In this document: positions 2,632-21,434 of the stretch, in pieces
How the letters are laid out: every line of letters starts with the position of its first letter
How positions within the stretch are numbered: the stretch's first letter is position 1
Assembly (NCBI GenBank): GCA_026413805.1
Contig: JAOAKE010000004.1
Coordinates: 1-36,862, forward strand
Length of the DNA: 36,862 bases
DNA from: Candidatus Micrarchaeota archaeon
Lineage (GTDB): Archaea > Micrarchaeota > Micrarchaeia > Anstonellales > Anstonellaceae
Direction of reading: 5' to 3'
Made by a program: the position numbers and the translations under genes
Notes under the pieces: generated by a model
The model's input: the letters and a program-made list of their open reading frames with translations, nothing else
What the model was told of the DNA's origin: nothing
The model's database searches: none

Positions 2632-2762
2632 TGCGGCTGCCGGGATTTTCAGCTTTTAGAAGCAAAAAAGCATTTGAACCCGGGTCGCAAGCTTTCTCCA
2701 AACCTTTTTCGTTTTTTCAGGTTGTGGGAAGCTCGAATCCTACCAGGCTGGACTACAGCCGC
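2632..2762 (-). tRNA. tRNA-Gly(CCC) with two introns (37/38: 2694-2724, 31 nt; 59/60: 2646-2672, 27 nt)
   Basis: Minus strand: acceptor GCGGCTG/CAGCCGC, D-arm GTCC..GGAT, anticodon stem CGAGC/GCTTG with loop TT-CCC-A^A, T-arm CCGGG-TTCAAA^T-CCCGG. BHB-type helices TTCC/GGAG and TTCA/TGAA. Confidence 0.93.
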
Positions 2763-2782
2763 ACAGTATTCGTGTTCCAACC

Positions 2783-2812
2783 AGCTTGGTAATATAAAGC
2801 TTGGTAATATAA
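2783..2812. repeat. Perfect 15-bp tandem duplication AGCTTGGTAATATAA x2 in a divergent promoter region
   Basis: Identical copies at 2783-2797 and 2798-2812, each containing a TATA-like element. Confidence 0.9.
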
Positions 2813-2829
2813 ATATTGCTTGCAAAACA

Positions 2830-3075
2830 ATGCCATCAAGGCGCAAAGGCGCCTAGGCCGGAGACAACAAACCAATTATTGCAGCAATCCTAAGCTTCGT
2901 AATATCGGGCTTGGGGCACGTCTACCTTGGCAAGATAAAGAAAGGAATAGTATTCTTCATTGCAACAATCATCGGCACTTTCTTCTTTGTAATACCCGGA
3001 TTGATAGTCTGGGCAATAAATGTCTATGATGCATACATGGAAGCGCAGGGAAAGCCTGTTTGGAAGTTCGATTGA
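2830..3075 (+). pseudogene. TM2-domain small membrane protein interrupted by an in-frame TAG at codon 9 (pseudogene, error or readthrough)
   Basis: MPSRRKGA*AGDNKPIIAAILSFVISGLGHVYLGKIKKGIVFFIATIIGTFFFVIPGLIVWAINVYDAYMEAQGKPVWKFD. TAG at 2854-2856. TM2-like motif AAILS..GLGHxYLG..KG. Not in the ORF track. Confidence 0.75.
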
Positions 3076-3113
3076 GGGAGACAAATTAAATTATTTTTGG
3101 GCGGAAGCTTTCT

Positions 3114-4112
3114 ATGAAGCTTCCGCGCCAGGCTATTTTTGCATTCAATGCCAACATAGACCATCTTAAAAGCGCGGGGGAAGAGGATATCCTAAAGATA
3201 GAACAGGAGTTTCCTGAGATTGCCTCCGCGATGTCTGAGTCTTTTTCATGGGGAGTCCAGCGGGAAATGGCAATTGAAGAGCGAGCCTGCAAATTTTTTC
3301 TTTCAAACTTTGAGTTTGAGATGAAAATAGTAGGAGGGCAGGCAGGAAATGCTGCCGAGCAAGCCTCTGCACTTGGGGTGGAGTGCTACCTGCACACCAA
3401 TTTTGCAAACAGCGACCTTGTCTCCCTCTTTTCGCATCCTGAAAAAATTTTCCTTGCATCTGAGAATGGCTTTGTGCGAGCAAATGAGTTGTCAGCTTTG
3501 CAGCCTTCTGCCCACCACTTTGTCTTTGAAAACAAAGAAAGCCGAACGCGCTTCATTGCTTCTTATGACCCATTCCCGCTGCACCCTGATTCCAACTTTT
3601 GCAGGAATATCCAAGGGGTGCTGCCACAAATTGACAAGGCATTCGTTGGCGGCTTGCACCTTGCCAAGTCCCCTGCACAACTGCAAAGGTTCTTGGATGA
3701 AATGAAAAAGTGGAAGGAAGCCAACCCCTCACTTTTGATTTTTTTTGAGATGGGCGAGTTTCTCTCGCGTGAAGTCCTCAAGGCAGCCGAAAGCGAGATA
3801 TTCTCAATCGCCGACATTGTTGGGCTGAACGAGGTAGAGCTTGCTTCACTTGGCTTTGAGCTGCACGACATTTCTAAAAATATAAAAACAGCGCTTTTTC
3901 ATACCCCTGAAGAGCAGCAGGTCTTTCCCCACGAGAAGACCAATGCGGCTGCCCTTGAATTTGCCCGCAGGTGTGCAAGCTTTTTTGCGCAGACCGGTAG
4001 GCGGGCAGGCCTTGAAGACATAGTTGGCTACAAGCCGCAATTTATTGGCTCGCCGAAGCGCACAGTAGGGCTAGGGGACACCTTCTCCTGCGCCTATTTT
4101 CTTGCAGTCTGA
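3114..4112 (+). CDS. ADP-dependent glucokinase/phosphofructokinase family (ribokinase superfamily)
   Basis: AFNANID, GGQAG, GLNEVEL and C-terminal TVGLGDTFS anion-hole motif. Confidence 0.88.
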   Translation: MKLPRQAIFAFNANIDHLKSAGEEDILKIEQEFPEIASAMSESFSWGVQREMAIEERACKFFLSNFEFEMKIVGGQAGNAAEQASALGVECYLHTNFANSDLVSLFSHPEKIFLASENGFVRANELSALQPSAHHFVFENKESRTRFIASYDPFPLHPDSNFCRNIQGVLPQIDKAFVGGLHLAKSPAQLQRFLDEMKKWKEANPSLLIFFEMGEFLSREVLKAAESEIFSIADIVGLNEVELASLGFELHDISKNIKTALFHTPEEQQVFPHEKTNAAALEFARRCASFFAQTGRRAGLEDIVGYKPQFIGSPKRTVGLGDTFSCAYFLAV

Positions 4113-4127
4113 GCAGGAAGCAAAAGG

Positions 4128-4252
4128 TGCGACCGCCGGGATTTCCACCCCTGCTTCGGATTTGAACCCGGCTCGCGAGATTTTTGCGGACGATTCTGCA
4201 AAAACCATTGCCCTGGCAATCTCGAATCCTAACCAGGCTAGACTACGGTCGC
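4128..4252 (-). tRNA. tRNA-Gly(GCC) with two introns (37/38: 4182-4213, 32 nt; 59/60: 4142-4160, 19 nt)
   Basis: Minus strand: acceptor GCGACCG/CGGTCGC, anticodon stem CGAGA/TCTCG with loop TT-GCC-A^A, T-arm CCGGG-TTCAAA^T-CCCGG. BHB helices TTGC/GCAA and TTCA/TGGA. Confidence 0.93.
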
Positions 4253-4348
4253 ACCGCAGAGTGGGATTTGCAAATTCCCATTTAAAACAATTGCGCTTTT
4301 TTTGGCTTCGCCGAATGTTTTTTATAATGTGTCTGAGCTTTTAGGTGC

Positions 4349-4978
4349 ATGAAGCGGTGCGGGTTCATCTTCTCACTGGACGCCTTTGTCGCATTCACAA
4401 TAATTACAATCACAGTCAGCCTCCTTATATTCATAATCGGGGTGCCAAAGGGCTACTATTCCATGCTGGAGCAAGCCCACCTTCTCTCATTTGACTGCCT
4501 GCAGGTCCTTTCTACCTCTTCTTTTTCAGGCTTTTCGCCGCCCACCTACCTGGACATAATTCTTTCAAATTCGCCGGGCCACCCCCTTTCAAGTGAGATA
4601 ATGAGAAACATTGTTGGAGGCAGCACAAATGTCTCGCGCAGGCCAATAATTCCAAAGGGATATGGGTTTGTTTTGGAAGACTTTGACTTCTCCACTGACA
4701 GCTGGAGGGTCCTTTACAATTCATCAGCAGACCCGCTTTCAGACCGTTTTGGAAAAGCCTATTCCAAGCTGCAAGCGTCATCAACAATCTTTGTCTCATC
4801 TTACAGCGTGCCTCCCTCTCCTGGAGAGTCCATGTATTGCTATATTTCTTGCAAGGGATACCAGCCAGACGGGTCTTATCGCTCCACTTGTGATGTTACC
4901 CCGTGCAGCAGGCCACTTGATAACTTCGGTGTAGGCGCAAACTCCCTTCACCTAGTCAAGCTCACAGTATTTGCGTGA
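4349..4978 (+). CDS. Class III signal peptide (pilin-like) protein
   Basis: N-terminus MKRCG|FIFSLDAFVAFTIITITV followed by a hydrophobic helix. Cys-rich C-terminal region. Confidence 0.65.
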   Translation: MKRCGFIFSLDAFVAFTIITITVSLLIFIIGVPKGYYSMLEQAHLLSFDCLQVLSTSSFSGFSPPTYLDIILSNSPGHPLSSEIMRNIVGGSTNVSRRPIIPKGYGFVLEDFDFSTDSWRVLYNSSADPLSDRFGKAYSKLQASSTIFVSSYSVPPSPGESMYCYISCKGYQPDGSYRSTCDVTPCSRPLDNFGVGANSLHLVKLTVFA

Positions 4979-4982
4979 TATT

Positions 4983-6641
4983 ATGAAGAATTCAAGCAGC
5001 AGGAAAGGATTTTTATTTACTCTTCTTGCGCTCTCCATCCTGGGCTTTATCCTCATGGTCATGCCTATTTGGATTGCCACCTTTGAAAAGGCAGACCAGC
5101 GGGCAGCAGCCAGATTCAAAGGGGAGGCAATGCGCTCCCTCTTTCATGCAATTTCCGATGAAACCTTTTCTGATTTTGCAAACGCCTCCTCATTTTTTGC
5201 CCTGCGAAAGCTTACCTTGTATGCCTCCAATGTCTCCACCCCGCTTCCGTGGAAGGATTCAGCTGCAACAGACCCGCGCAATCCCCACACCGATGCAGTT
5301 GCGGAAAGCATCCTCTCATTGGTTTTGGAAGGGAATGCCACCCCCACATCTGTTCCGTTGGTTTATTCTGATGAGGAAAAGAACGCCTACACCTTTAAGG
5401 CTTGGAAGGACAGGGTTGCCAAAGCAGTAAACATGATGGGTTTCAACATCTCCTTTTCAGACCTTAAGAACTTCTCCTTCCGCCAAAGAGATGAATGGAC
5501 TGTTGAAGCCTATTTTGAAATGGAGATGAACATAAGCGATTTTGAAAAAACCATGCGCCAGTCCAAGAGGCTTCGCGCAAACGTCTCCTTTCCAATAAAC
5601 GGTTTTCGCGATGCCATGGTTTCAAGGATGGACGCTGTCCAGAGGTGCAATTCAGGGAGTTTGTGCACTAACTTTGTAGAACGACAGATATTCCGCAATG
5701 ACCAATATCCCTCGCCTGCGAGCTTGCAGCCAGTCTTGCTTAGCAGGCCGCCGCGCGCTGTTGGGGGAGGGGCAGGCTGGTTCTATGGCCCTATTACAAG
5801 CCTTTACCCATATGAAATGGAAATAGACCAGCTTGCCAACATCTCAAGCTACATCCTTGTAAGAAGCTGGGATGAAAACCTCACCAATTATGCCAACCTA
5901 TACGGAGGAATAATCATTACCAACCTGCCATCGGAAATTACTTACAATGTCACAGAAGGGAGCTGCGAGTACAACATTACTGAGCAAACACGCTGCATCA
6001 ACTGCATAAGGCGCTACACCTCAAACATGCCGGGCTGTGCTGCCAGGGTTGAGCTTGTTCCTGCCACCATAATAAACAGGCCTTTCTTGGAAATAGGCGG
6101 CTCAGATTGGATAAACGAAATAAGGGCGGTGCGCCGGGCAGGCCTTCCTGACGAGCGGTATGTCCTTATAGAAAACCAATATTCCCTGCCTGAGCAAAAG
6201 CTTGAGGGACACCACAGGCTGTGGGACTTAAGCAGCATTAGGGATGTTTTAATGTGCGGCTTTTATGTGAAAGGCAAAGGCCCCTCTTTCTTCCAGAGAA
6301 TGCTAGCAGATGCACAAAACATCAACAACCCTGCCCTTGGTATTGAAAGCTTTGTAGTAGGGACATGGGCGGGCGGGAGCGAAGACAGCAGCTACTCCAG
6401 CCCGCCACAGGATGCTTCCCATGAAACCTTCTCTCGGCTGGACTGGGAATTTTACAGGCGGTGGTCAGGCGAAAAGATAAAGGGCATGCCTGGCTGCAAG
6501 AGCCGCGAGATGTGCGGAAGCCCGGACAACAATGCCACCAAGCTCGGAGTGGGAAGGTTCACCCTTACAACCGATTCTATCGCAAGATATGGGCTGGGAG
6601 AGCTCTCATGCACAAAATATCCCCAAGCAGGATGCAGCTGA
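4983..6641 (+). CDS. Large class III signal peptide protein (candidate minor pilin/adhesin)
   Basis: SSRKG|FLFTLLALSILGFILMV, many paired Cys and N-x-S/T sequons, GPSFFQRM motif. Confidence 0.65.
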   Translation: MKNSSSRKGFLFTLLALSILGFILMVMPIWIATFEKADQRAAARFKGEAMRSLFHAISDETFSDFANASSFFALRKLTLYASNVSTPLPWKDSAATDPRNPHTDAVAESILSLVLEGNATPTSVPLVYSDEEKNAYTFKAWKDRVAKAVNMMGFNISFSDLKNFSFRQRDEWTVEAYFEMEMNISDFEKTMRQSKRLRANVSFPINGFRDAMVSRMDAVQRCNSGSLCTNFVERQIFRNDQYPSPASLQPVLLSRPPRAVGGGAGWFYGPITSLYPYEMEIDQLANISSYILVRSWDENLTNYANLYGGIIITNLPSEITYNVTEGSCEYNITEQTRCINCIRRYTSNMPGCAARVELVPATIINRPFLEIGGSDWINEIRAVRRAGLPDERYVLIENQYSLPEQKLEGHHRLWDLSSIRDVLMCGFYVKGKGPSFFQRMLADAQNINNPALGIESFVVGTWAGGSEDSSYSSPPQDASHETFSRLDWEFYRRWSGEKIKGMPGCKSREMCGSPDNNATKLGVGRFTLTTDSIARYGLGELSCTKYPQAGCS

Positions 6642-6651
6642 AAGTGAGAAG

Positions 6652-7113
6652 ATGCAAGCAGAGAAAGAAAAGATGCAAACCTGCGCAATGCGCGCGCAAG
6701 CAGCAACAGAGGTGCTTGTCCTTGTGGGCTTTGCGCTTGCCTTTATTTTGCCCTTTGCATTCCTTTTTCTGTCTACCACCTGGGGCGAGATAGGAAAGTC
6801 CTCCACACTCCAGGCAAAGATTGCTGTGCGAACCATTGCTGATGAGGCAGGCGAAGTCTATCTTCAAGGGCCAGGCTCAAAAAAAGTGATTTATGTCTAT
6901 TTTCCATCGGGAGTGGTTGATGGAGGGTTAAACGAAGGAATAGTGAGGCTGACTGTGGAAAGAGAAGGGCTAAGGCAGGACATTGTAAGCTATACATTTG
7001 CCAACATCTCGGGCTCTCTTTCAGGAAAAAGAATAGCAGGGATTCAAAGAATAAGGCTACAATATGTTTTTCCAGGAGATTATGTAAACATAAGCTATGT
7101 TGATTCCGGATGA
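6652..7113 (+). CDS. Class III signal peptide pilin (Q+1, E+5 type)
   Basis: MRA|QAATEVLVLVGFALAFILPF and IADEAGEVYLQGPGSKKVIYVYFP. Start is 6652 or 6688; the listed 6532 start overlaps the upstream gene. Confidence 0.8.
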   Translation: MQAEKEKMQTCAMRAQAATEVLVLVGFALAFILPFAFLFLSTTWGEIGKSSTLQAKIAVRTIADEAGEVYLQGPGSKKVIYVYFPSGVVDGGLNEGIVRLTVEREGLRQDIVSYTFANISGSLSGKRIAGIQRIRLQYVFPGDYVNISYVDSG

Positions 7114-7117
7114 GTTT

Positions 7118-7621
7118 ATGGAAGTTGCAGTTGGCAAGCTTGGGCAGGCAGCAGTGGAGTTCTTTGCCTATGCATCGTTTTTCTTGTTCGTTGTCCTAGT
7201 GGCAACAGCTGTTTTCTTACAGATTCAACAGCAGGAGCTTTCAAAGGCAGAAACTGCCTTTGCCCAAGAAACTGCCTATGAGTTTGCAGACCAAATTCAC
7301 ACAACATTCATTGCTGGGTCTGGCTTTAGGCAGTCAGTCTCTCTGCCCCAATCAATTCTTGGAAGGCCCTACCAGATCAAGATAAGCCGAAGCGGAAGCC
7401 CAAATGTGAGAGAAACAGGGATGGTGTATGTGGAGTGGAAAGGGGCAGGAGGGCAGCTTAGCTTTTCAGCGCCAACAGTGACAACCGCCTATGATGCAAC
7501 TACACATGCAGGCTTCATTAATGTGTCAGGGGATTTTATAATAATAAATCCGGCGAGCTACCCCGGAGTAAAGCTAAATATTTCAAATGAGAATGGAAGG
7601 ATACGGTTCAGCAGGGGTTAA
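7118..7621 (+). CDS. Class III signal peptide pilin (Q+1, E+5 type)
   Basis: GKLG|QAAVEFFAYASFFLFVVLV and AGSGFRQSVSLPQSILGRPYQI. Confidence 0.8.
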   Translation: MEVAVGKLGQAAVEFFAYASFFLFVVLVATAVFLQIQQQELSKAETAFAQETAYEFADQIHTTFIAGSGFRQSVSLPQSILGRPYQIKISRSGSPNVRETGMVYVEWKGAGGQLSFSAPTVTTAYDATTHAGFINVSGDFIIINPASYPGVKLNISNENGRIRFSRG

Positions 7622-7622
7622 G

Positions 7623-8186
7623 ATGGGCTTGAAAAAGGGGCAATATTTTTCCTTTGATGCAATTGTGGCAGCAGTAATAGGGATAATTGCACTTTCCACA
7701 CTGATAGCTTATTGGAGTGGCGCGCAGTCTGCGGTGGACAGCCGGGCCTTGCCTTTGCATTCCGAGGCAGCGCGCATGTCAGCAGCACTTCTTTCGCCAG
7801 GCGAGCCTGCCAACTGGACCAATTTCCTTCCACCCAGCGGTGGAATAGGCGGAAACATCAGGCAGGTTGGGATAGCCAGCCAATCCGGGGTATTAAATCG
7901 CACAAAGGTGAACGCCTTAATAGACAGGATAGGAGTCATTGGCGGGCCTTCCAGCCCAAAATATCCTGCTTATTTAGAGCTTGGCAGAATATTGCACACC
8001 CCTTCAAACTACTATATCCTTCTTGAAGCATCAGATTCAATTTATTCAAATATCTGCAGCACCTCTTCAGTCTGCCTCATCGGATGGCCTCCTCCTGCAA
8101 ATGCAACCGAAGTAGCCATCTTTCACCGCGGGGCAGTAAGTGAAGAGGGCATTCCTGTCCGCGTTCGCGTATTTCTTTGGCGCTAA
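7623..8186 (+). CDS. Class III signal peptide pilin-like protein
   Basis: LKKG|QYFSFDAIVAAVIGIIAL and LLSPGEPANW motif. Confidence 0.75.
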   Translation: MGLKKGQYFSFDAIVAAVIGIIALSTLIAYWSGAQSAVDSRALPLHSEAARMSAALLSPGEPANWTNFLPPSGGIGGNIRQVGIASQSGVLNRTKVNALIDRIGVIGGPSSPKYPAYLELGRILHTPSNYYILLEASDSIYSNICSTSSVCLIGWPPPANATEVAIFHRGAVSEEGIPVRVRVFLWR

Positions 8187-8207
8187 CTGAAAAAAACCGA
8201 AAAGAAG

Positions 8208-9962
8208 CTATTCTACTGTCACCGACTTTGCAAGGTTCCTTGGCTTGTCAGGGTCGCGCCCAAGCTCCACTGCCATATAATAGGCAAGCATTTGCAATGG
8301 GATTGAGTATAAAATAGGGGAGGCAAGCTGGCTGCACGGCGGCATCCTGAATGACAATGCTGACTTTGAAAGCAGTTCTTCTGAATCTGACAACACCAAG
8401 AGAGTGGCATTCCTTGCTTTGCATTCCTGTATGTTTGAGGCTGTTTTTGGAAGTGATTCGTCAGATGGCGCAAGCGCCACAACCACGACCTCTTTGTCCA
8501 AAAGCGAAAGCGGTCCGTGCTTGAGTTCTCCTGCAGCGTATGCCTCTGCGTGCAGGTAAGTTATTTCTTTTAGCTTAAGTGCCCCTTCAAGGGCAACCGG
8601 GTAAGAGTAAGACCTCCCGATAAAGAAGAAATCCCTCCTTTTTGCAAGGGCAGAGGCAATCTTTTTTATTTCATTTGACCTAGAGGCAAGCCGCTCTATT
8701 TCCCAAGAAAGCGCGGCAAGCTCTCCTGCCAGTGCGCTTTTGCCTGCAAGGGAAATGGCGATTTTTGTAAGGACGGCAAGCTGGCAGGTGAATGACTTGG
8801 TGGCCACCACCGAAAGCTCAGGCCCAGCCCCAATGACTACTCTGGCGTCTGCTTCTCGGTAAAGGGAGCTTCCCACTACATTTGTTATCGCGATTATCTT
8901 CGCCTTGTCCTTCTTTGCAAGCCTTACAGCTGCAAGGGTGTCGGCAGTTTCCCCAGACTGGCTGATTGCCACAACCACTTTCTCTTTTCCTGTGCGCAGG
9001 TACGGGTATTCTGAGGCATAGGCCACTTCGCATGAGGCCCCAAGGAGCCTGTGCATGGCAAGTTTGAAAACCAAGCCTGCATGGTATGAGCTGCCAGAAG
9101 CAACAACTGCGATGCTGCTTTGGTTTTTCAGCAGCCCAACAGCTTCGCTGACATCAGCAGCCAACGCCTCCCTCACCTTTGACTGCTGCTCATTGATTTC
9201 CTTAATCATAAAGTGCGGGTAGCCGTCCTTTTGGGCCATCTGCGCAGTCCAATTTATGGCATGCACCTTTCTTGCCACCTTTTTTCCGTCTTTCCCAAAG
9301 ACTACAAACCCATCCTTGTGCATCTCGGCACGGTCGCCATCTTCCAAAAAAATAGCTTGGTTTGTGTATTCAAGCAGGGCGGCAACATCAGAGGCGCAAA
9401 TCATTTCTCCCTTCCCAACCCCCATCACCAGAGGCGGCCCATTGCGGGAAAGGTAAATTGCCTGTTCCCCCTCTGCCATCACTACTAAAGACCACGAGCC
9501 TGTCAGCCTCCCCACTGCCTTTTCAAACGCCTTCCCAAAATCCTTCTCTTTTTTTCGCGCATCCTCTATCAGGTGCGCCACAAGCTCGGTGTCTGTCTCA
9601 GAAGTGAAGCGGTGCCCAGCGGATAAAAGCTCCTCCTTCAGCTTTTCAAAATTTTCAATAACACCGTTGTGTATCACGAATATTTTTCCGCTGCAGTCTG
9701 AGTGCGGGTGGGCATTCTGTGGGGTGACGCCGCCGTGGGTTGCCCATCGCGTGTGCCCAATACCCATGTTGCCTTCAAGCTGCAGGAAATTCTTTTTTTT
9801 GTGGATTTCATCTATTTTTCCCACGTCTTTTATCACCCTTATTTTTCCATCCAGGGTGGCAATTCCTGCCGAATCATAGCCTCGGTATTCCAGCCGGCGC
9901 AGCCCTGCCAGTATTACTTCTGAGGCCTTTCGGTGTCCTATGTAGCCGATTATTCCGCACAT
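8208..9962 (-). CDS. glmS: Glutamine-fructose-6-phosphate aminotransferase (isomerizing)
   Basis: MCGIIGY, RLEYRGYDSAG, GHTRWATHG, SQSGETADT, ELKHGP, PRNLAKSVTVE. Confidence 0.98.
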   Translation of the reverse strand: MCGIIGYIGHRKASEVILAGLRRLEYRGYDSAGIATLDGKIRVIKDVGKIDEIHKKKNFLQLEGNMGIGHTRWATHGGVTPQNAHPHSDCSGKIFVIHNGVIENFEKLKEELLSAGHRFTSETDTELVAHLIEDARKKEKDFGKAFEKAVGRLTGSWSLVVMAEGEQAIYLSRNGPPLVMGVGKGEMICASDVAALLEYTNQAIFLEDGDRAEMHKDGFVVFGKDGKKVARKVHAINWTAQMAQKDGYPHFMIKEINEQQSKVREALAADVSEAVGLLKNQSSIAVVASGSSYHAGLVFKLAMHRLLGASCEVAYASEYPYLRTGKEKVVVAISQSGETADTLAAVRLAKKDKAKIIAITNVVGSSLYREADARVVIGAGPELSVVATKSFTCQLAVLTKIAISLAGKSALAGELAALSWEIERLASRSNEIKKIASALAKRRDFFFIGRSYSYPVALEGALKLKEITYLHAEAYAAGELKHGPLSLLDKEVVVVALAPSDESLPKTASNIQECKARNATLLVLSDSEELLSKSALSFRMPPCSQLASPILYSIPLQMLAYYMAVELGRDPDKPRNLAKSVTVE

Positions 9963-9978
9963 GAGAAAAGCACCAAAA

Positions 9979-10173: not shown

Positions 10174-10252
10174 AACACACACCCTCCACATAGAGCTTGG
10201 AAGGAGTGGTTAATAATATTTTGGCTTTTTGGAAGCAGCATTGCCTGCTTGG

Positions 10253-11338
10253 TTACCTAAAGGGGCGGGCATTCCTGCGAAGGCGCATTAGGGCAGGGCT
10301 CCGTCCCAGCCTGCTAAAAAGCGAGCCATATGCCTGCTCAAATTGGCGCCCATCTAATGCCGCGCGAAGGTCGGCTTCAATAAGCACAGGGGGATAGGCA
10401 TAGGATTTGTGGAGGCAAGAAAGCGAATGGACAAAGGAGGCTATTTCATCAAATCCCCTCTGCCCAGAAAGGAACTCCACCCGCAACGGCCGGTCATCCT
10501 TTACTGGCTTGAGGTAAAAGGCAAGTATTCTTTCGCCCCATTGCCCGAGCTCTTTGATTATCTGGTGCCTCTGTGGTTCCGCCGCATAGGAAAAGGCGCA
10601 AGTCCTCTCACCCTCATTCAGCATAAAAAACAGGAAATTAGTGTCGTTTGTGTTGGCAAACCCATTGCCCTGGGTGTGCTTGCTGACTATCTCTATGAAT
10701 CGCCTGCTTCTGCTGTCCTTTATCACTCCCAGCAAAGTGCAGTTTTTTTCCCAGGCAGCTTGGTAAAGCTTGCGGTATTCTTCTACTGTCTCGTTGTAAA
10801 GTGGCCTAATTTCCGACTCTTCTGGCGGCCTGTCTGACAGGAGGGGGGCTATTGAGCCATCCAGCAGCAGATAATCTGGAGAATGCTGTGCAATGAGCTT
10901 GCTTGCACAGGAAAGCTCGCTTTTAAGCCTGAACAATGACTTGTGCCATATAACCTCATAGCTGTCAAGCCCGCTTCGCACGTCATATTGCGTGTTTGGG
11001 ATTGCAGACGGGAAGTAGGTGTGCGAAATCACCTTGGAAGCGCGATATTCAAATATCACGCCCGCTGCCCTCAAGAGGAGAAAGTCAAAGCCGTGCAGCT
11101 CCTCCCCTATAATGCCGCTGTCCACGGCAGCGACCTTGCAGCTTATGGAAACCTTGCCCACAGGGTAAAAAAGGCTTTTTTCAAGGGTTTCAGGGTATTC
11201 TATCTTCCCTGAATTGAAGCGCAGCCTTTTTGCAAGCTCCCTTTTTTCATTTTCCGACTCCGAAATCTTTTTTGCAATTTCTTCCAAGCCAGAGTCAAGC
11301 ATAAGTAATATAACGCTGGGTTTGCTTTTTATCTGCAT
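10253..11338 (-). CDS. nurA: NurA DNA double-strand break repair nuclease
   Basis: VAAVDSG, LLLDGSI, GVIKDSRS, YAYPPVLIEADLRA motifs. Confidence 0.88.
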   Translation of the reverse strand: MQIKSKPSVILLMLDSGLEEIAKKISESENEKRELAKRLRFNSGKIEYPETLEKSLFYPVGKVSISCKVAAVDSGIIGEELHGFDFLLLRAAGVIFEYRASKVISHTYFPSAIPNTQYDVRSGLDSYEVIWHKSLFRLKSELSCASKLIAQHSPDYLLLDGSIAPLLSDRPPEESEIRPLYNETVEEYRKLYQAAWEKNCTLLGVIKDSRSRRFIEIVSKHTQGNGFANTNDTNFLFFMLNEGERTCAFSYAAEPQRHQIIKELGQWGERILAFYLKPVKDDRPLRVEFLSGQRGFDEIASFVHSLSCLHKSYAYPPVLIEADLRAALDGRQFEQAYGSLFSRLGRSPALMRLRRNARPFR

Positions 11339-11391: not shown

Positions 11392-11742
11392 ATGGCACTC
11401 AAGCAAGTGATTGTAATCCGCAGCGACTTGGGAATGGGCAAGGGCAAAATCGCTGCGCAGGTTTCCCACGCCTCCCTTTCTGCTTTTCGCCAGGCAGAGC
11501 TGCGCGACAAATTCACTGCGCGGAAATGGGAGGCAGAGGGGCAGAAAAAAATTGTCTTGAAGGTCGCAAGCGAGCAGGAGCTTCTTGCCCTCTATGAGAA
11601 GGTAAGGCGCGAGCTTCCATGCGCCTTGGTTCGCGACGCAGGAAGCACCCAGCTTGAGCCAGGCACAATCACTTGCTTTGCCGCAGGGCCTGCTGAGGAG
11701 GAAAAGATAGACAAGTTCACAAAAGAGCTCAAGCTTCTCTAA
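11392..11742 (+). CDS. pth2: Peptidyl-tRNA hydrolase Pth2
   Basis: KQVIVIRSDLGMGKGKIAAQVSHA, GQKKIVLKV, DAGSTQL, GP, LKLL. Confidence 0.96.
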   Translation: MALKQVIVIRSDLGMGKGKIAAQVSHASLSAFRQAELRDKFTARKWEAEGQKKIVLKVASEQELLALYEKVRRELPCALVRDAGSTQLEPGTITCFAAGPAEEEKIDKFTKELKLL

Positions 11743-11776
11743 CCAGCGCCAAGCCCGCCTGCCAAAATGCAAAGGC

Positions 11777-15133: not shown

Positions 15134-15136
15134 CTG

Positions 15137-15664: not shown

Positions 15665-15722
15665 GGCAGCCACTTTAAAGTAGTGTTTTTTATTCTTTAT
15701 TTCCGCTTTACTTCTTGGTTTT

Positions 15723-16613
15723 ATGCCAAAAAAGAGAAAAAAGAGGCAAACAGCGCAACCAGTAGGGCAAAAAGCAAAGCCGCCTATTCAAGCTAAAAAC
15801 GCGCCCCCTCCGCGTGCATTCTTTTTCTTTCTTGCAGCATTTGCCATCATTGCCTTGGCACTTTTTGCAGCTTGGATGATGGTGGGCAAGCCACCTGAAA
15901 AAAGCGACGCGCCCAATGGCACAAAGGCCAAAGATGAGCCGCCAACCCTCTCAACTGCGCCGCATTACCAGCTTTCTGCTTCTTCCTTTGACTCTGCTTA
16001 TGCGCGGGGAAGCCCGAACGCAGAAATAATCCTTGTTGAATACTGCGATTTTGAGTGCCGATTCTGCCAAGCCGCTTCTTCTACCCTCTCCTCTCTCCAA
16101 AAAAGCAACCCCAATGTGAAGGTCGTCTATAGGCACTATCCTGTAAAGGGCCATTCATTCTCCCAAAAGGCCGCAGAGGCAGCAGAATGCTCTGGAGAGC
16201 AGGGGAAATTCTGGGAGATGCACGACCTGCTGTTTGAAAACCAAAATGACCTTGCCCCCTCCTCCCTCAAAAAATATGCAGAAAAAATAGGATTGGACCT
16301 AGCGAGATTCAATTCTTGCCTTGAATCAGGAAAATACCAAGAGCTTGTTTCTTCGCAGGCAGCAGAAGGGAGGAAGGTTGGGATTTCGGCAACCCCTGCA
16401 TTCATTGTATTTTCCAAAGGCACAAAAGACCCTGCGCTGGAGGCAAGGCTGCTGGAAAAGGCACAGGAGGTCTCCTCCCAATATCCCACCTATGAATTGG
16501 GCATGCAGCTAGTCTCAATCAATGGCGCAAGGGGGGCCTTGCTGTTCTTTGGGGCGCTGCCCCAGTCAGACTTTGAAAAGATAATGGAAGCATTTCAAAA
16601 AAGGGCAAGCTAG
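15723..16613 (+). CDS. DsbA/BdbD-family oxidoreductase
   Basis: TM helix, RGSPNA, EYCDFECRFC, YRHYP, AAEAAEC..QGKFWEMHDLLF, GISATPAF. Confidence 0.9.
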   Translation: MPKKRKKRQTAQPVGQKAKPPIQAKNAPPPRAFFFFLAAFAIIALALFAAWMMVGKPPEKSDAPNGTKAKDEPPTLSTAPHYQLSASSFDSAYARGSPNAEIILVEYCDFECRFCQAASSTLSSLQKSNPNVKVVYRHYPVKGHSFSQKAAEAAECSGEQGKFWEMHDLLFENQNDLAPSSLKKYAEKIGLDLARFNSCLESGKYQELVSSQAAEGRKVGISATPAFIVFSKGTKDPALEARLLEKAQEVSSQYPTYELGMQLVSINGARGALLFFGALPQSDFEKIMEAFQKRAS

Positions 16614-16637
16614 CCTAAGGGTGTTTTTTTGCCTTCT

Positions 16638-17411
16638 ATGAAACTCTTCATTGAATCTTGCCTTCGCGACTCTGCCCGGCTGATTGAAAAAATGAGGGCA
16701 AGGGGGCTGAAAATAACAGCCAAAAAGCGAAACGACATGGTAACCTCGGCAGACTTCGCATCGCAGGCGCTTATAGAGGCAAGGATTAGAAAGGAATTTC
16801 CAGGCGCACACATCCTGTCCGAAGAGGGCGACTTTAAGGCGGATCTTCTTGCAGACTCGCTGTTTGTGATAGACCCGATTGACGGCACGCACAATTTCAT
16901 ACAGGGAATACCGATTTACGGAGTTTCGCTTGCCCATTTTTCAGGCGGCAAGCCAACTGCCGGGGGGACAATCATCCCGCGCCAAAACATGCTTTTTTAT
17001 GCAGAGAAAGGGAAGCCTGCGCTGCTGAATGGAAAAAAGATTTCAGTTTCCAAGACTGCCAAGTTGGAAGACTTCTTTTTTTTGTGCGACAGCCGACTGC
17101 ACACCATCAAAGACCAAGGTTTTTTGAAGGCAGTAGTGGAGCTGGAGCGCCTCAGCCAGCACACTCGCTTTACAGGCTGTTCTGTGTTTGAGCTTGGCGC
17201 AGTTGCATGTGGCATGGTAGATGCGGGGCTGTACTTTAAGCTCAAGCCCTATGATTTTGCTGCAGGGGCGCTCATAGTGGAGCAGGCAGGCGGCAAAGTG
17301 ACAGATTTTGATGGAAAGCGCTGGAGCCTTTCCACAAAGCAGTTTGTTTTTTCAAACGGCAGGCAGCACCGCCAAATCGTTGAGTTCCTCCAATCAAACA
17401 AGGAAAGTTAG
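16638..17411 (+). CDS. suhB: Inositol monophosphatase family protein (SuhB-like)
   Basis: DMVTSAD, ILSEE, IDPIDGTHNF, KPYDFAAGALIVEQAGGKVTD. Confidence 0.9.
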   Translation: MKLFIESCLRDSARLIEKMRARGLKITAKKRNDMVTSADFASQALIEARIRKEFPGAHILSEEGDFKADLLADSLFVIDPIDGTHNFIQGIPIYGVSLAHFSGGKPTAGGTIIPRQNMLFYAEKGKPALLNGKKISVSKTAKLEDFFFLCDSRLHTIKDQGFLKAVVELERLSQHTRFTGCSVFELGAVACGMVDAGLYFKLKPYDFAAGALIVEQAGGKVTDFDGKRWSLSTKQFVFSNGRQHRQIVEFLQSNKES

Positions 17412-18065
17412 CTATTTATCTGCAGGCTCCTCCTTTGCCCAAAACCTGCTTTCAGCCAAAGAGGCAACTGCAAGGAAGAAGACCGAGGCAAATAGCAAGG
17501 CAGATGCAAATGCAATGGCAAAAACCGCCAGCTGGACTGCGCCGATGCCTTTTTTCAGCGCCCCCCTTGCCTCTTCAAGAGCCGCCTTGGCCTCTGATGC
17601 CTTGCTGGCGCTTTTCATTATAGCTTCTGAAGTTTTCCCAAAAGAAGAGGCTGATTGGTTTAGCGAGAGGCTTGCTGCTGAAAAAGAAGAGGAAGCGTTC
17701 TTGAGGCTGCCTGCTGCTTCTTGGATTCGCTTGTCCAGTGAAAAGGGCGGAACTGCAGAAATGCTCTCCAAGACCGAAGCAAGGGCACTGCTTGATTTTG
17801 AAAATTGCGCAAGGGCTATTGAGGCATTTTTAGTCCCTTCCTCAAGCCTTGCACTCCCGCTGCCTGCATCTGCGCTTGCCTTTTCAAGAAAAGCGGCTGT
17901 GCCAACTGCAGAGTCTAATTGCCGCTCAATTGCTGCAGAGGCATTTGAAAGCATAAAAAAAATCGCTGCTGCTGCCACTATTGACAAGACAAAGCCAGCG
18001 CAAGAGAGCAAGGCAGAAAGTGCAAACAAGGAAGCCCGCGCTTTCTTGATTAAATCCTCATCCAT
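17412..18065 (-). CDS. Hypothetical membrane protein (two TM helices flanking an Ala/Ser-rich coiled coil)
   Basis: Hydrophobic segments at both ends and a heptad-like middle. Co-oriented with and directly downstream of the NHL gene. Confidence 0.7.
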   Translation of the reverse strand: MDEDLIKKARASLFALSALLSCAGFVLSIVAAAAIFFMLSNASAAIERQLDSAVGTAAFLEKASADAGSGSARLEEGTKNASIALAQFSKSSSALASVLESISAVPPFSLDKRIQEAAGSLKNASSSFSAASLSLNQSASSFGKTSEAIMKSASKASEAKAALEEARGALKKGIGAVQLAVFAIAFASALLFASVFFLAVASLAESRFWAKEEPADK

Positions 18066-18076
18066 CTGCTTTCCCC

Positions 18077-20116
18077 CTAATCATCCTTCCATATTTTGAC
18101 TTGCCCTTCTTCGCCGCTGCCTTCATCTTCTTCAGTGGCTCCCCTGTTTTTTCTCCTCTTGCGTGCGTAGAGGTGCAGCGCAAAGGCAGCGGCAATGATT
18201 CCTGTAAGGCCAACCATGACCAATATGGCTGAGACTGCAACTGACAATGACTGCGCCTCAGCCATCTTTATCCGGGCTGATGAAATTGCCTCGAGGGCCA
18301 TCTTGGATGCAGCCTCTGGCTCAGAATATGCAAGCTCCTCCGCATCGCCCATTTTTTTCTTTTCTTTTGAAAAGTCAGGCCGAATAAGGGGCGACTTTGA
18401 GGAGTAGTTGGCCAGCTCTTGCTTGAAGGCAGATATGTTTTTCAAAGCCTCTTCTATCGCAGGCACTATCTCCTCAAGTCTTTTTTCATAAGAGGAGATT
18501 TCAAGCTCTGCAATTCCAAGCGAGCGGTTTGCCCCCGCGTAATCTCCGCCTGCCATTGAAGAGTTTGCTGCCAAAAGGGCTTCCATCGCAGAGCTGAGGT
18601 TTATCCTCTGGCGGAACATGGCAGCCTTTCCTTCTAACTCGCCTGCACGCTTGTTAAGGAGCTCCATCCTTTGCTCTATCCATGAAGAAACCAGCGCAGT
18701 GTCAGTTGCGTTTTTGGCAGCCTGCTCTTTCTGTGCAGCCGAAATGTATTTTTCTGCCATGCTTGAAAGGGAAGGCAAAAGGCCTATTGCTTCGCTGTAA
18801 TACTTGCTTTCAGCCTTGTTTTTGATTTCTGCAGCCAGCCTGTCAAATTCTGGCAGCTGCCCCAAAAGGCCCGCAGAAAGGTTTTTTCGGCGGTAAGGCT
18901 CTACTTTTTCCTGCTCCGCCTTTACCATCTGCTTTATTTTTACCTCTATCTTCTGGGAAAGGTTAAGCTTTGCCTCGTTTGCAGATTCAATTGCCTTGCT
19001 TGCAAGCCTTTCGGCAGCAGAAAAGGCAAATCGCGAATACTCTTCTTTAGCTGCAACCACATGTGCTGCAAGGTAGCTGTAGTCCTCCACAGTCATGTTG
19101 AGCTTCAAAGCCAGCTGCTGCATGCTATAAAGCTTTTTTACCGAATCATTTGCTTGCGAAATCAGGGCCAATACCTCTTTTTTTCCCTCAACCTCTTTGA
19201 TTTGGTAAACCAGCACCTTTTTTGCTTGAGGGTCTGCCAAGTAGAGCTTTCCATCATATATTGAAAGGTCCTCTGGCTCAGAGAGGTTGCCGCCAGAAAC
19301 GTTTGAATCAAGCACATCTGCCAAATAGCCCTCCAAAGTGAAAACAAGCACCTTTTTAGCGTAAGCATCTGCCACATAAATAAAATCATTGTATATTGCC
19401 ATCCCCCGAGGAGACGACAGCCCTCCTTCCCCTCCCCCAATTGAGTAAAGGAAGGTGAAATTCCTGCTGTAGGCATATATTGCTTTTTTGCCCCGGTCTA
19501 GCACAAACACCTTGTCCTTGTAAATCTCAACGTCTGCTGGCATGTTCAGAAAGCCATCTGAAGGCCCTCTTTCGACCGCAATCCTTTCAAAGGTGCGAGT
19601 CTCTTTTGAATAAACATACAGCCGCCCATTTTCCATGTCAGTAATGTAGGCGTGTTCATTGTCAAAAGCAATTGCAGAGGGCCGTTTTAGGTTGGAAGAC
19701 TCCTTGCGGTTCCACAGCTCTATGGCCCGCCCCTCCCCGGGGTAAAAGCGTATGATGGTGCTGACGCCGTCTGCGATATAAACGCTCCCATTGTAGTAAG
19801 TCATTTTATGGGGGCTTTCAAGCTGGACATATTCTGCGCTGTTTTTCAAGAACAATTTGCGCGGGCTGGCATTTTCACTTTCGTTGTAGTAGCCGCTTGA
19901 GTTGAAGATGTAAAACGCATTGGTGAGGTCGTCTGCTACATATAATTTGCCTCCAGCCGCAAGAACGCTGCTTGGGTGCCTAAACAAATACGTCTCGTCA
20001 GTGTCTTCAAAATTCGTCCCATTGAAATACCCAAGGTAGCTAAATCCTGCGAATATGCTGCTTGAAAAAACAAGAAGCAATGCCAGTAGCCTGCAATATC
20101 GCACTTGCTTCACCAA
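18077..20116 (-). CDS. Secreted NHL-repeat beta-propeller protein with long helical stalk and C-terminal TM anchor
   Basis: Signal peptide. About six repeats such as FRHPSSV..KLYVAD, LKRPSAIAF, LNMPADV, LSSPRGMAI, LSEPEDL. Coiled coil, TM helix, KRRKNR tail. Confidence 0.85.
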   Translation of the reverse strand: MVKQVRYCRLLALLLVFSSSIFAGFSYLGYFNGTNFEDTDETYLFRHPSSVLAAGGKLYVADDLTNAFYIFNSSGYYNESENASPRKLFLKNSAEYVQLESPHKMTYYNGSVYIADGVSTIIRFYPGEGRAIELWNRKESSNLKRPSAIAFDNEHAYITDMENGRLYVYSKETRTFERIAVERGPSDGFLNMPADVEIYKDKVFVLDRGKKAIYAYSRNFTFLYSIGGGEGGLSSPRGMAIYNDFIYVADAYAKKVLVFTLEGYLADVLDSNVSGGNLSEPEDLSIYDGKLYLADPQAKKVLVYQIKEVEGKKEVLALISQANDSVKKLYSMQQLALKLNMTVEDYSYLAAHVVAAKEEYSRFAFSAAERLASKAIESANEAKLNLSQKIEVKIKQMVKAEQEKVEPYRRKNLSAGLLGQLPEFDRLAAEIKNKAESKYYSEAIGLLPSLSSMAEKYISAAQKEQAAKNATDTALVSSWIEQRMELLNKRAGELEGKAAMFRQRINLSSAMEALLAANSSMAGGDYAGANRSLGIAELEISSYEKRLEEIVPAIEEALKNISAFKQELANYSSKSPLIRPDFSKEKKKMGDAEELAYSEPEAASKMALEAISSARIKMAEAQSLSVAVSAILVMVGLTGIIAAAFALHLYARKRRKNRGATEEDEGSGEEGQVKIWKDD

Positions 20117-20189
20117 AAGGCTTTGGAGCAGTTAATTAAAAAGAGTTCTGATTTTGCAAGCCCTGTCTTGTGCCTCAAGCCAGCTACAC

Positions 20190-20295
20190 AATGTAATTTT
20201 TAGTTATTAAATAGTTAAAATATTGCGAATTTAGTATTTATAAAACAAAAAAATGCTTTTTTCAGCCAAAAAATTACGAATTATTTATAAACCCT
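20190..20295. promoter_or_regulatory. Strongly AT-rich divergent intergenic region with TATTTATAAA occurring twice
   Basis: Nearly GC-free tract in a GC-balanced window. TATA-like boxes upstream of 20324. Confidence 0.5.
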
Positions 20296-20323
20296 TCGCA
20301 CAACAGCCATAGCGGTGAGATAA

Positions 20324-20695
20324 ATGCATGCACAAAATAAATTCCCGAATAGGGCAAACCCACAGCCTGCAAACCAGGCAACCCAAAGGAGCACAAGGGC
20401 TTTCGAAGGAAGAAGCATTCATGAGGTATTTGGCGGCATTGTAGGGAAGGGCAACCCAAATAGCAACAGCATCAGCTTAAACCAACTTGCACATGTTTTA
20501 AATGAAAGGCAAAATATGCTGAATAATAACAGGAATAATAATGACTGGAACATTGCATACGAAATAGCGGGGCAACTTAAGAACCCACCTAATGGCCCGT
20601 TCCAAGATCTAGTTTTTCGCGTAATCCAAATAGCAGTGGAAAAAGGCATCCTGCCCAAAAACCCAAACCCGAATGACTTTGGAGGGCCAATCTAG
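20324..20695 (+). CDS. Asn-rich hypothetical protein
   Basis: 123-aa ORF filling the gap behind a TATA-like box. AT-rich codons; no family recognised. Confidence 0.55.
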   Translation: MHAQNKFPNRANPQPANQATQRSTRAFEGRSIHEVFGGIVGKGNPNSNSISLNQLAHVLNERQNMLNNNRNNNDWNIAYEIAGQLKNPPNGPFQDLVFRVIQIAVEKGILPKNPNPNDFGGPI

Positions 20696-20709
20696 CCAAG
20701 CCTTGCCTT

Positions 20710-21135
20710 TCACTTCCATTTTTTCATTATTATGCTTGTCTTTGTTTTTCTTATTTCCTCAAGGGCGCGCAGTTCATCCACTCGCCTGTTGAGAGATTCC
20801 ATGTCAGCGGCAGAAAGAAGGATGGCGAAGTCCATCTCCCCTGAAACCTCCCAGATGCCCATTACTCCTTCTTCCTTTTCAAGTGCCTTTGCCACCTTCT
20901 CCGAAGAGGCATGCGGCGAAGTAGATAGAAAGACAAGGGCATTCACAGTGTCTTTTTCATCAACTTCAATGGTAAAGCGCCTTATTATCCCGCGCGCGAC
21001 TAAGTTGGAAACGCGCCTCCTTGCGGCAGGCTCAGAAAGCCCAACCTTTTTGCCCAGCTTTTGGTTGGGGATGTCTGCGTTTTCGCGCAGGATTTGAAGT
21101 ATTTTTTTATCAATTTCGTCAATTTTCCACGCCAT
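20710..21135 (-). CDS. Lrp/AsnC family transcriptional regulator
   Basis: IDEIDKKILQILRENA, GLSEPAARRRVSNL..GIIRRFTI HTH, RAM domain VSGEMDF. Confidence 0.93.
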   Translation of the reverse strand: MAWKIDEIDKKILQILRENADIPNQKLGKKVGLSEPAARRRVSNLVARGIIRRFTIEVDEKDTVNALVFLSTSPHASSEKVAKALEKEEGVMGIWEVSGEMDFAILLSAADMESLNRRVDELRALEEIRKTKTSIIMKKWK

Positions 21136-21156
21136 GTTGCTCTTCTGCCTCTGCAA

Positions 21157-21165
21157 TTAATATAA
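21157..21165. promoter_or_regulatory. Candidate bidirectional TATA element shared by the Lrp gene and tRNA-Gly(TCC)
   Basis: TTAATATAA lies about 22-35 nt from both the Lrp ATG (21135) and the tRNA 5' end (21192). Confidence 0.5.
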
Positions 21166-21191
21166 GGCTATCTCAAAGTAAATTAATCAAA

Positions 21192-21434
21192 GCGGACGTA
21201 GTATAACCTGGCTAGTATCTTGGCCTTCCATAGGGAAACCCCCCGGCAATCCCTTGGTGGTTTCCTCTACCTTCCCCACAGGTTGCAAGAAGGTAGGATA
21301 AAGGGAAACCCCCCGGCAATTTGGGGCGGTTTTCCGCAAGCAGAAGAAAGTCAAAGGTCCGGGTTCAAAAACCAGCCATTCCTGCAATTTTGCAAGCAGG
21401 CTTGGAATTGGCCCTGAAAATCCCGGCGTCCGCA
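21192..21434 (+). tRNA. tRNA-Gly(TCC) with two introns (37/38: 21231-21348, 118 nt; 59/60: 21370-21420, 51 nt)
   Basis: Acceptor GCGGACG/CGTCCGC, D-arm GTAT..GTAT, anticodon stem TTGGC/GTCAA with loop CT-TCC-A^A, T-arm CCGGG-TTCAAA^T-CCCGG. Junction helices CTTC/GAAG and TTCA/TGAA, each followed by an AA^N bulge. Confidence 0.9.
21232..21320 (+). repeat. 19-bp direct repeat AGGGAAACCCCCCGGCAAT inside the tRNA-Gly(TCC) intron
   Basis: Identical copies at 21232-21250 and 21302-21320. Confidence 0.93.

Follow-up and report, generated by a model that had tools for sequence, protein, structure and literature searches.

Three tRNA-Gly genes with two introns each in a Micrarchaeota archaeon, and T-loop disruption of tRNA-Gly genes in related genomes

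The three tRNA-Gly genes on a 36,862-nucleotide (nt) stretch of contig JAOAKE010000004.1 from a Micrarchaeota archaeon (hereafter, the window) are each interrupted twice, in the anticodon loop between positions 37 and 38 (37/38) and in the T-loop between positions 59 and 60 (59/60). The observation of three double-intron genes is correct and lies far beyond chance. We consider it very likely that these are genuine, separately transcribed genes for tRNA-Gly(CCC), tRNA-Gly(GCC) and tRNA-Gly(UCC), each carrying two protein-spliced introns of the bulge-helix-bulge (BHB) type, and that position 59/60 of tRNA-Gly is a long-standing unstable site. This assessment builds on the genes themselves, the geometry of their splice motifs, the conservation of their exons and their orthology with genes of related genomes. 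To a site already known in the phylum, our data add the persistent disruption of Gly genes at 59/60.

The three genes and their introns

The coordinates, anticodons and intron lengths are exactly those given in an original prediction made from the DNA letters; the strands are newly assigned here. A tRNA-Trp gene in the window served as a comparator.

2632..2762, minus strand: tRNA-Gly(CCC), exons 2725-2762, 2673-2693 and 2632-2645
2694-2724, minus strand: anticodon-loop intron of Gly(CCC), 31 nt, at 37/38
2646-2672, minus strand: T-loop intron of Gly(CCC), 27 nt, at 59/60
4128..4252, minus strand: tRNA-Gly(GCC), exons 4214-4252, 4161-4181 and 4128-4141
4182-4213, minus strand: anticodon-loop intron of Gly(GCC), 32 nt, at 37/38
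4142-4160, minus strand: T-loop intron of Gly(GCC), 19 nt, at 59/60
21192..21434, plus strand: tRNA-Gly(TCC), exons 21192-21230, 21349-21369 and 21421-21434
21231-21348, plus strand: anticodon-loop intron of Gly(TCC), 118 nt, at 37/38
21370-21420, plus strand: T-loop intron of Gly(TCC), 51 nt, at 59/60
33576..33684, plus strand: tRNA-Trp(CCA), one 36-nt anticodon-loop intron

The three Gly genes are colinear, with no permuted order, and in each of them the insert splits the T-arm CCGGG TTCAAA ... T CCCGG. After splicing in the register set by the motif, the anticodon (NCC: CCC, GCC and TCC) stands in a 7-nt loop, 21 of 21 stem pairs form in each gene, and the acceptor stem GCG...CGC is followed by the discriminator A73. 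The identity elements of tRNA-Gly are C2:G71, G3:C70 and the discriminator A73. All three genes carry this set, the initial GCG being paired with the 3' CGC.

We scored the BHB motif as a 5' bulge consisting of two bases from the end of the exon and one from the start of the intron, a central helix in which the four exon bases before this bulge pair with the four intron bases preceding the last two, and a 3' bulge made of the last two intron bases and the first base of the next exon. In each of the six window introns, a stem of the tRNA itself provides the outer helix of 5 bp, the central helix is complete (4/4) and the 3' bulge reads AA^A or AA^T. In all three T-loop introns, T54-A57 pairs with TGAA (CCC, TCC) or TGGA (GCC) next to the AA bulge, as had been predicted. 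The contiguous inner helix measures 6 bp in the CCC T-loop intron, 2 bp in the GCC T-loop intron and in the CCC and GCC anticodon introns, and 0 bp in both TCC introns, which agrees with the proposal of a full T-loop motif in CCC and GCC and a relaxed one in TCC. The boundaries of the T-loop introns are ambiguous by at least 1 nt from sequence alone (intron-initial T or A run), and 59/60 is the register fixed by the motif. The intron interiors had been called unrelated, and no pair among the six window introns matched (blastn-short, E<=1e-2). The tRNA-Trp gene has the TTCAAAT T-loop with no intron in it, also as predicted; its anticodon-loop intron is an additional finding. This intron has only 2/4 central pairs at 37/38 and no Watson-Crick central helix; in its fold, an 11x11 internal loop separates the anticodon stem from an 8-bp helix.

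The 118-nt anticodon intron of Gly(TCC) contains an exact 19-nt direct repeat (21232-21250 and 21302-21320, plus strand). It resembles two similar hairpins flanking a third, with a folding z-score of -1.82 and no Rfam match.

The expectation that standard annotation may miss such genes was borne out (ARAGORN 0/3, Rfam 1/3). ARAGORN with default settings called no tRNA in the window, and with the -i option on the raw window it called only tRNA-Trp (33576-33684) and none of the three Gly genes. The Rfam tRNA model recovered Trp and Gly(GCC), the latter at 34.6 bits with two insertions; it missed the CCC and TCC loci even when these were searched singly at E<=10, where the only matches were chance, sub-threshold ones to unrelated families. 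Once the T-loop insert was removed in silico, ARAGORN -i found a cloverleaf at all three loci and called the GCC gene Gly(gcc). In the other two genes, its placement of the remaining intron gave the anticodons AGA and TCA, that is, Ser(aga) and selenocysteine, SeC(tca). We rejected this placement because it ignores the motif and is contradicted by the orthologues. In an excision scan, every BHB-like segment was removed and ARAGORN was run on each product (24,765 candidates in the window). Only the three Gly loci and Trp were recovered from the real window. The same scan of 10 dinucleotide shuffles gave one junction-spanning call in each of two shuffles and none in the other eight.

Each window Gly gene has a TATA-like box at a similar distance upstream and a T-run directly after the discriminator; CCA is not encoded. 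From the sequence and from general knowledge of archaeal promoters, the boxes would be promoters and the T-runs terminators. Gly(CCC) owes its second TATA-like box to a 15-nt tandem duplication (2783-2812) in the upstream region.

2791..2813, minus strand: TATA-like boxes of Gly(CCC), at -36 and -51
4280..4286, minus strand: TATA-like box of Gly(GCC), at -34
21159..21165, plus strand: TATA-like box of Gly(TCC), at -33

We propose the following route from precursor to mature tRNA. Nucleotides 32-35 would pair with the four bases of the anticodon intron that are separated from its 3' splice site by two bases, and towards its end the T-loop intron would offer TGAA or TGGA for the corresponding pairing with T54-A57. 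The pairing would put each splice site in a 3-nt bulge beside the anticodon stem or the T stem of the tRNA. A broad-specificity splicing endonuclease could then cut both motifs; by analogy with ARMAN-2 (Candidatus Micrarchaeum acidiphilum) of the same phylum, it may be of the epsilon-2 type. The three exons would be joined by an RtcB-type ligase, in keeping with the archease gene present in the window, and CCA would be added after splicing because it is not encoded. The three-unit epsilon-2 endonuclease of ARMAN-2 is reported to cleave a 59/60 intron of tRNA-Cys in vitro (PMC3239211).

tRNA-Gly genes in related genomes

As a synteny anchor, we used the gene that lies between Gly(CCC) and Gly(GCC) in the window.

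3114..4112, plus strand: ADP-dependent kinase-like gene (Pfam ADP_PFK_GK)

An alignment of 37 kinase-like homologues was used for a profile search of genome contigs, which yielded 26 loci (418,822 nt; referred to by L numbers) from Micrarchaeota metagenome-assembled genomes (MAGs). Most of them carry Gly(CCC) upstream and Gly(GCC) downstream of the kinase-like gene, as in the window, and ARAGORN called the syntenic flanking genes of the relatives Gly(ccc) or Gly(gcc). Our catalogue, compiled with a structural parser and hand-checked regular expressions, comprises 47 Gly genes (3 in the window and 44 others) from the window and 23 of the 26 loci. Parser and patterns found no Gly gene in L012, L016 and L024, and two Gly genes cut by contig ends (L001 GCC and L022 CCC) were excluded. 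A plain 59/60 pattern scan gave 184 matches, mostly due to chance, from which we retained the ones validated as tRNAs. We abandoned a spliced-alignment dynamic program in which introns were cheap, as it over-fitted and yielded many spurious multi-intron "genes", and used the parser instead.

CCC: 21 genes; anticodon intron in 10, T-loop disrupted in 11, both in 5, intron-less 5
GCC: 19 genes; anticodon intron in 13, T-loop disrupted in 14, both in 9, intron-less 1
TCC: 7 genes; anticodon intron in 3, T-loop disrupted in 5, both in 1, intron-less 0
All isoacceptors: 47 genes; anticodon intron in 26, T-loop disrupted in 30, both in 15, intron-less 6

The 30 T-loop disruptions consist of 25 contiguous 59/60 introns (18-204 nt), three genes permuted at 59/60 and two introns at 56/57. 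Both introns occur in all three isoacceptors only in the window genome; since TCC was found in only 7 genomes, we do not claim that this pattern is unique.

The register of the BHB motif appears to be under selection across the catalogue. The central helix is complete (4/4) in 19 of the 25 introns at 59/60, with 3/4 pairs in five and 2/4 in one; when the 3' partner is shifted by 1-3 nt, 4/4 pairs form in at most one of the 25. The anticodon introns behave similarly (4/4 in 17 of 26, 3/4 in eight and 2/4 in one; at most 1/26 with 4/4 in shifted registers). The 59/60 introns end in a near-invariant TGAAAA (T in 23, G in 25, A in 23, A in 21, A in 25 and A in 22 of 25), and the rest of them is unalignable. 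Moreover, the anticodon-intron bases opposite positions 32-35 covary with the anticodon: they are GGAG, GGAA or GGGA in 9 of 10 CCC genes, GCAN in 11 of 13 GCC genes, GAAG in the window TCC gene and GAGG opposite the CCTC loop of L026.

The exons are far better conserved than the neighbouring protein. Once spliced, the CCC sequence of the window matches the spliced CCC of L003, which naturally has no anticodon intron, at 100% identity and the naturally intron-less CCC of L005 and L007 at 95%. The window's GCC, when spliced, shows 100% identity to the spliced GCC of L002, L003 and L005, whose kinase-like proteins are merely 54-65% identical to that of the window. For TCC, the catalogue holds no orthologue of the same length for an identity count. 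Compensatory changes occur at 12 of the 21 stem pairs across the catalogue. Together with the motif geometry, this conservation suggests that the window loci are real two-intron tRNA-Gly genes and probably functional.

Several relatives carry introns at other sites. In L019, Gly(CCC) (9791-9901, minus strand) and Gly(GCC) (11566-11674, minus strand) have T-loop introns of 38 and 36 nt at 56/57, whose ends pair with the T-stem; the Gly(TCC) gene of the same locus has a 41-nt intron at 59/60 with 2/4 central pairs only. D-loop or D-region introns are found in Gly(CCC) of L023 (104 nt; gene at 4625-4898, minus strand) and of L020 (141 nt; gene at 9441-9730, minus strand), and the D-loop and T-loop introns of the L023 gene have an identical 17-nt stretch in common. 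L006 (297-367, minus strand) and L008 (9870-9940, minus strand) have the same 71-nt Gly(CCC) sequence at the syntenic site. It has no intron, belongs to a different sequence type, with a short D-loop and the T-arm GGGGTTCGATTCCCC, and may be a gene replacement.

Three Gly genes look circularly permuted at 59/60, judging from the order of their pieces:

L021:11155-11278, minus strand: Gly(TCC), 3' piece (nt 60-73) 51 nt upstream of the 5' piece
L020:11292-11375, minus strand: Gly(TCC), permuted order with an 11-nt linker
L020:9441-9730, minus strand: Gly(CCC), permuted order with a 75-nt linker

In each of them an intron-like TGAAAA precedes the 3' piece, and ARAGORN calls Gly in all three when the pieces are rejoined. 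The flanks of the L021 gene pair with each other through a 9-bp inner helix (duplex of -24 kcal/mol). The 11-nt linker of the L020 Gly(TCC) gene is T-rich, and hence this gene may instead be split into two transcripts.

Another rearrangement was seen in L001 (8453-9608, minus strand), where an open reading frame (ORF) of 343 amino acids (aa) with LAGLIDADG homing-endonuclease domains (8512-9543) is flanked by two pieces related to tRNA. The first, a fragment of 25 nt (9584-9608), is identical to the 5' end of the window Gly(CCC). The second (8453-8526) is an entire Gly(CCC) gene with no intron, and its acceptor, D and T parts resemble the window Gly(TCC) (61/74 identical). The arrangement suggests the insertion of a mobile element or recombination at a tRNA gene. 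We considered the LAGLIDADG insertion as a BHB intron at 24/25 and rejected this by hand, the central-helix positions being unpaired. Extra pieces resembling Gly 3' ends adjoin Gly genes at several loci, often as a hairpin followed by the last 6-14 nt of the tRNA and a T-run; recombination or integration could have left them behind.

L018:10940-10953, minus strand: Gly 3'-end-like piece
L025:2441-2567, minus strand: Gly 3'-end-like piece
L019, downstream of 9791 and 11566, minus strand: Gly 3'-end-like pieces
L001:11590-11707, plus strand: Gly 3'-end-like piece

Origin of the T-loop introns

The T-loop was disrupted in 30 of 47 Gly genes and in none of nine non-Gly tRNAs (three Trp, Val, Pro, Arg, two Phe and one unnamed in L026; Fisher p=4e-4), a weak comparison of data points that are not independent, drawn from related genomes at loci chosen by synteny around Gly genes and with only nine non-Gly tRNAs sampled. 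The excision scan of all loci (253,925 candidates) gave only two calls outside known tRNA genes. A call inside the kinase-like coding sequence of L002 is spurious, and a tRNA-Phe gene of L022 (2425-2537, minus strand) shows a 38-nt D-region intron in the scan. Searching the intron sequences against the loci outside catalogued genes returned only 10 short matches, none of them in another tRNA isotype.

An all-against-all comparison of 61 sequences from introns or flanks places the anticodon introns of GCC genes, the window's among them, in a single orthologous family; the window's resembles those of L003 and L014. The window's three T-loop introns matched nothing in this set; they would have diverged or been acquired separately and do not look like recent copies of each other. 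Similarity of introns across different tRNA genes, as expected of a mobile family, was not found among the six introns of the window (E<=1e-2), but it was found in relatives. The T-loop introns of the CCC and GCC genes are 100% identical over 39 nt in L004 and 97.6% identical over 83 nt in L017. A further T-loop intron of 44-45 nt, 95-98% identical, is shared by three loci:

L009:11074-11221, plus strand: Gly(GCC) with the shared intron
L010:8351-8595, minus strand: Gly(CCC) with the shared intron
L018:9786-9902, minus strand: Gly(CCC) with the shared intron

Between L010 and L018, this intron is identical at 42 of 44 positions, compared with 67 of 73 for the tRNA exons and 37% identity for the neighbouring protein; the neighbouring protein of L018 is 36-37% identical to those of L009 and L010. 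Such near-identity across isoacceptors and distant genomes means that pure vertical descent does not explain the pattern, which fits DNA-level exchange among Gly genes with nearly the same flanks, or a mobile or constrained intron.

The shared 44-45-nt intron contains two hairpins, one closed by a CTTCGG loop, and is conserved at least as well as the exons. A two-hairpin element (a G5/C5 hairpin, then a hairpin starting with TCACCCC) recurs in long T-loop introns. It is duplicated in tandem in L017 CCC, and looser variants occur in L006, L014 and L026; a MAFFT alignment of the element was too gappy to support the structure.

L002:11141-11236, minus strand: long T-loop intron with the two-hairpin element
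L011:9746-9897, minus strand: long T-loop intron with the two-hairpin element
L017:9662-9880 and 11012-11201, minus strand: long T-loop introns with the two-hairpin element
L018:11156-11267, minus strand: long T-loop intron with the two-hairpin element

Mapped on a protein tree, T-loop disruption requires at least seven state changes for CCC (n=21) and at least five for GCC (n=19), and the GCC anticodon intron only two; these counts are rough, since the tree was made from a single protein with a quick method and, of its 24 inner branches, 5 are starred and 8 unresolved. The window's nearest relative, L001, has an intron-less CCC gene. With presence this patchy among relatives, one ancestral intron that was simply inherited does not alone explain the pattern.

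Of the alternatives to our interpretation, we regard as possible, if not probable, that nothing about the pattern is Gly-specific. Position 59/60 would then be a general insertion hot spot with independent acquisitions, and the pattern would reflect intron density and a Gly-centred sample. ARMAN-2 lends weight to this: according to Fujishima et al. (2011; PMC3239211), 56% of its tRNA genes carry disruptions, with an intron at 59/60 in pre-tRNA-Cys(GCA) and introns at 53/54 and 59/60 in pre-tRNA-Pro(GGG), and hence the site is not Gly-specific in the phylum. Moreover, the TTCRA T-loop of nearly all tRNAs could pair with a TGAA-ending intron, the T-loop introns of the window are unrelated in sequence, and the tree requires many changes. 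A general hot spot is harder to reconcile with the Gly versus non-Gly counts given above, for all the dependence among their data points, and with the near-identical introns that cross Gly isoacceptors in L004, L017 and L009/L010/L018 and occur in none of the sampled non-Gly tRNAs.

It is also conceivable that mobile BHB introns home to Gly 59/60, an idea that we put forward tentatively. Such elements would cross isoacceptors and distant genomes, consist of the TGAAAA end with or without a hairpin cargo, and sometimes permute the host gene. The window would then show the end point of complete "colonisation", with Gly decoding reliant throughout on tRNAs that are spliced twice. For Thermoproteales, transposition of introns has been proposed, by a mechanism described as still unknown (PMC4090602, PMC4033280).

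Somewhat less likely, in our view, is strict descent from a T-loop intron of the ancestral Micrarchaeota Gly genes, with a drifted interior, precise losses and no mobility. The GCC anticodon intron does behave in this way, with its recognisable orthology and two state changes, and T-loop disruption is present in all three deep clades and all three isoacceptors, including 14 of 19 genomes for GCC. However, inheritance without mobility does not account for near-identical introns in different isoacceptors of one genome (L004, L017), nor for the 44-nt intron that is 95% identical next to a protein at 37% and sits in CCC of two genomes and GCC of a third. In addition, it must accommodate the changes in CCC among 21 genomes and the placement of the L019 CCC and GCC introns at 56/57.

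That the window loci are decaying pseudogenes or relics, with functional intron-less Gly genes elsewhere in the genome, is very improbable. In its favour, our view is limited to 36.9 kb of the genome, ARAGORN and Rfam overlook most of the loci and the TCC motifs are relaxed. Against it, the exons are 95-100% identical to orthologues amid freely varying introns, all stems pair, the register of the motif is maintained, and each gene has a T-run and at least one TATA-like box. In 23 of 26 related loci, the only Gly(CCC) and Gly(GCC) genes found occupy the same syntenic positions, and duplicates are unexpected given the 43 tRNA genes reported for ARMAN-2 (PMC3239211).

We therefore favour genuine two-intron genes with an unstable 59/60 site. 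Only the six 3'-terminal intron bases (TGAAAA) would be constrained in evolution, and introns would be gained, lost and swapped among Gly isoacceptor genes at the DNA level, sometimes giving rise to permuted genes. The original prediction of an ancestral or Gly-targeted intron stands in part. Its Gly side agrees with T-loop disruption being widespread among Gly genes, at the ratio to non-Gly tRNAs given above; its single origin fits poorly with unrelated window introns and patchy presence, and its exclusiveness with the Cys and Pro introns published for the same site. Our data partly support the Gly T-loop site as an old, recurrent target in the phylum, one that is not exclusive to Gly and has a high turnover.

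Besides the narrow sample of non-Gly tRNAs, the coarse tree and the lack of matches for the window's own T-loop introns, several points weigh against the interpretation that we favour. Transcription, cleavage and ligation are deduced from the DNA, and the type of enzyme from the phylum. Both TCC introns and the CCC anticodon intron have no clean inner helix, so that a tolerant enzyme would be needed, which is also implied by the very relaxed motif of the Trp intron. Searches of the 36.9-kb window found neither EndA, the splicing endonuclease, nor RtcB (Pfam at E<=1e-5 for 41 ORFs and at E<=1 for 13 unexplained ORFs; NCBIfam). In minimum free energy folding, the central helix, which is rich in A and U, sometimes fails to form, as in the CCC T-loop intron. 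Finally, detection in the relatives requires a TTCRA T-loop and a fairly strict motif, and the pairing of 981 of 987 stem cells across the catalogue is partly forced by the parser's own criteria.

Known systems, consequences and neighbouring genes

The closest known system is ARMAN-2, from the same phylum, with the same 59/60 T-loop site, more than one intron per gene and both strict and relaxed BHB motifs (PMC3239211). Unlike the Cys and Pro examples described there, the window combines 37/38 and 59/60 introns in all three Gly isoacceptors. Multiple introns at non-canonical sites are also reported for Thermoproteales (Sugahara 2008 and Fujishima 2010, via PMC4033280 and PMC4090602), with up to three introns per tRNA and with similar introns in different tRNA genes, read as DNA-level spread (PMC4033280, PMC4090602). 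These archaea belong to the TACK phylum and have an (alpha-beta)2 endonuclease, and their intron sharing crosses isotypes, whereas the sharing seen here is confined to Gly isoacceptors of relatives and does not extend to the window introns.

Permuted tRNA genes joined at 59/60 are described from Thermofilum pendens and the red alga Cyanidioschyzon merolae (Chan et al. 2011, PMC3218864), and the permuted Gly genes of L020 and L021 resemble them in the 59/60 junction and the BHB across the termini. The archaeal cases published there are crenarchaeal initiator Met and Tyr genes with CCA encoded (PMC3218864); the L020 and L021 Gly pieces have no CCA. A limited literature search returned no report of permuted tRNAs in Micrarchaeota or DPANN, which is not proof of absence. 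According to Fujishima 2009, the tri-split tRNA of Caldivirga maquilingensis reportedly concerns Gly as well. The Caldivirga tri-split tRNAs share with our genes the synonymous tRNAs, the breakage at intron-like sites and the exchangeable pieces (PMC4033280); they differ in being joined in trans from separate transcripts and in the positions concerned, the window genes being contiguous.

One site in one tRNA family is repeatedly disrupted, exchanged and even permuted across the phylum, and the comparative set is a compact natural system for the gain, loss and movement of protein-spliced introns at the DNA level. Small genomes of such archaea usually have single-copy tRNA sets, which makes it plausible, as seen from 36.9 kb of the genome, that all Gly decoding depends on double splicing. 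With 43 tRNA genes in all in ARMAN-2 (PMC3239211), duplicate Gly genes are not expected. If the three genes are the sole Gly genes, every GGN codon relies on six correct endonuclease-ligase events. Standard tRNA calling would miss the Gly tRNAs of the window, at the rates given above, and could thereby give a false impression of an incomplete genome or an odd decoding scheme; incomplete tRNA sets have already been noted in DPANN genomes (PMC5829648).

The host had been guessed to belong to Micrarchaeota, and protein matches of up to 66% identity and the related loci agree with this. All 26 confirmed loci are Micrarchaeota records or closely matching archaeal MAG records. The kinase-like protein has 109 homologues, the named ones being from Micrarchaeota, Micrarchaeia or Anstonellaceae and the best non-self match being 66% identical. 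The window proteins, which include Elp3, NurA, archease, OapC, NMD3 and DUF2070, are archaeal in character. Two of their genes bear on tRNA. Archease is a cofactor of the tRNA-splicing ligase RtcB and is given here as context only, and Elp3 modifies U34 of tRNAs.

29953..30351, minus strand: archease gene (Pfam Archease, E=1.5e-33; NCBIfam also run)
489-2156, plus strand: Elp3 gene, two genes upstream of Gly(CCC)

Relaxed Pfam and NCBIfam thresholds likewise revealed no EndA in the window, and a 416-aa ORF adjoining the archease gene is thioredoxin/glutaredoxin-like. Opposite Gly(TCC), on the minus strand, a 172-aa ORF at 21187-21705 covers the full length of the gene; although probably spurious, it could be annotated by callers that miss the tRNA.

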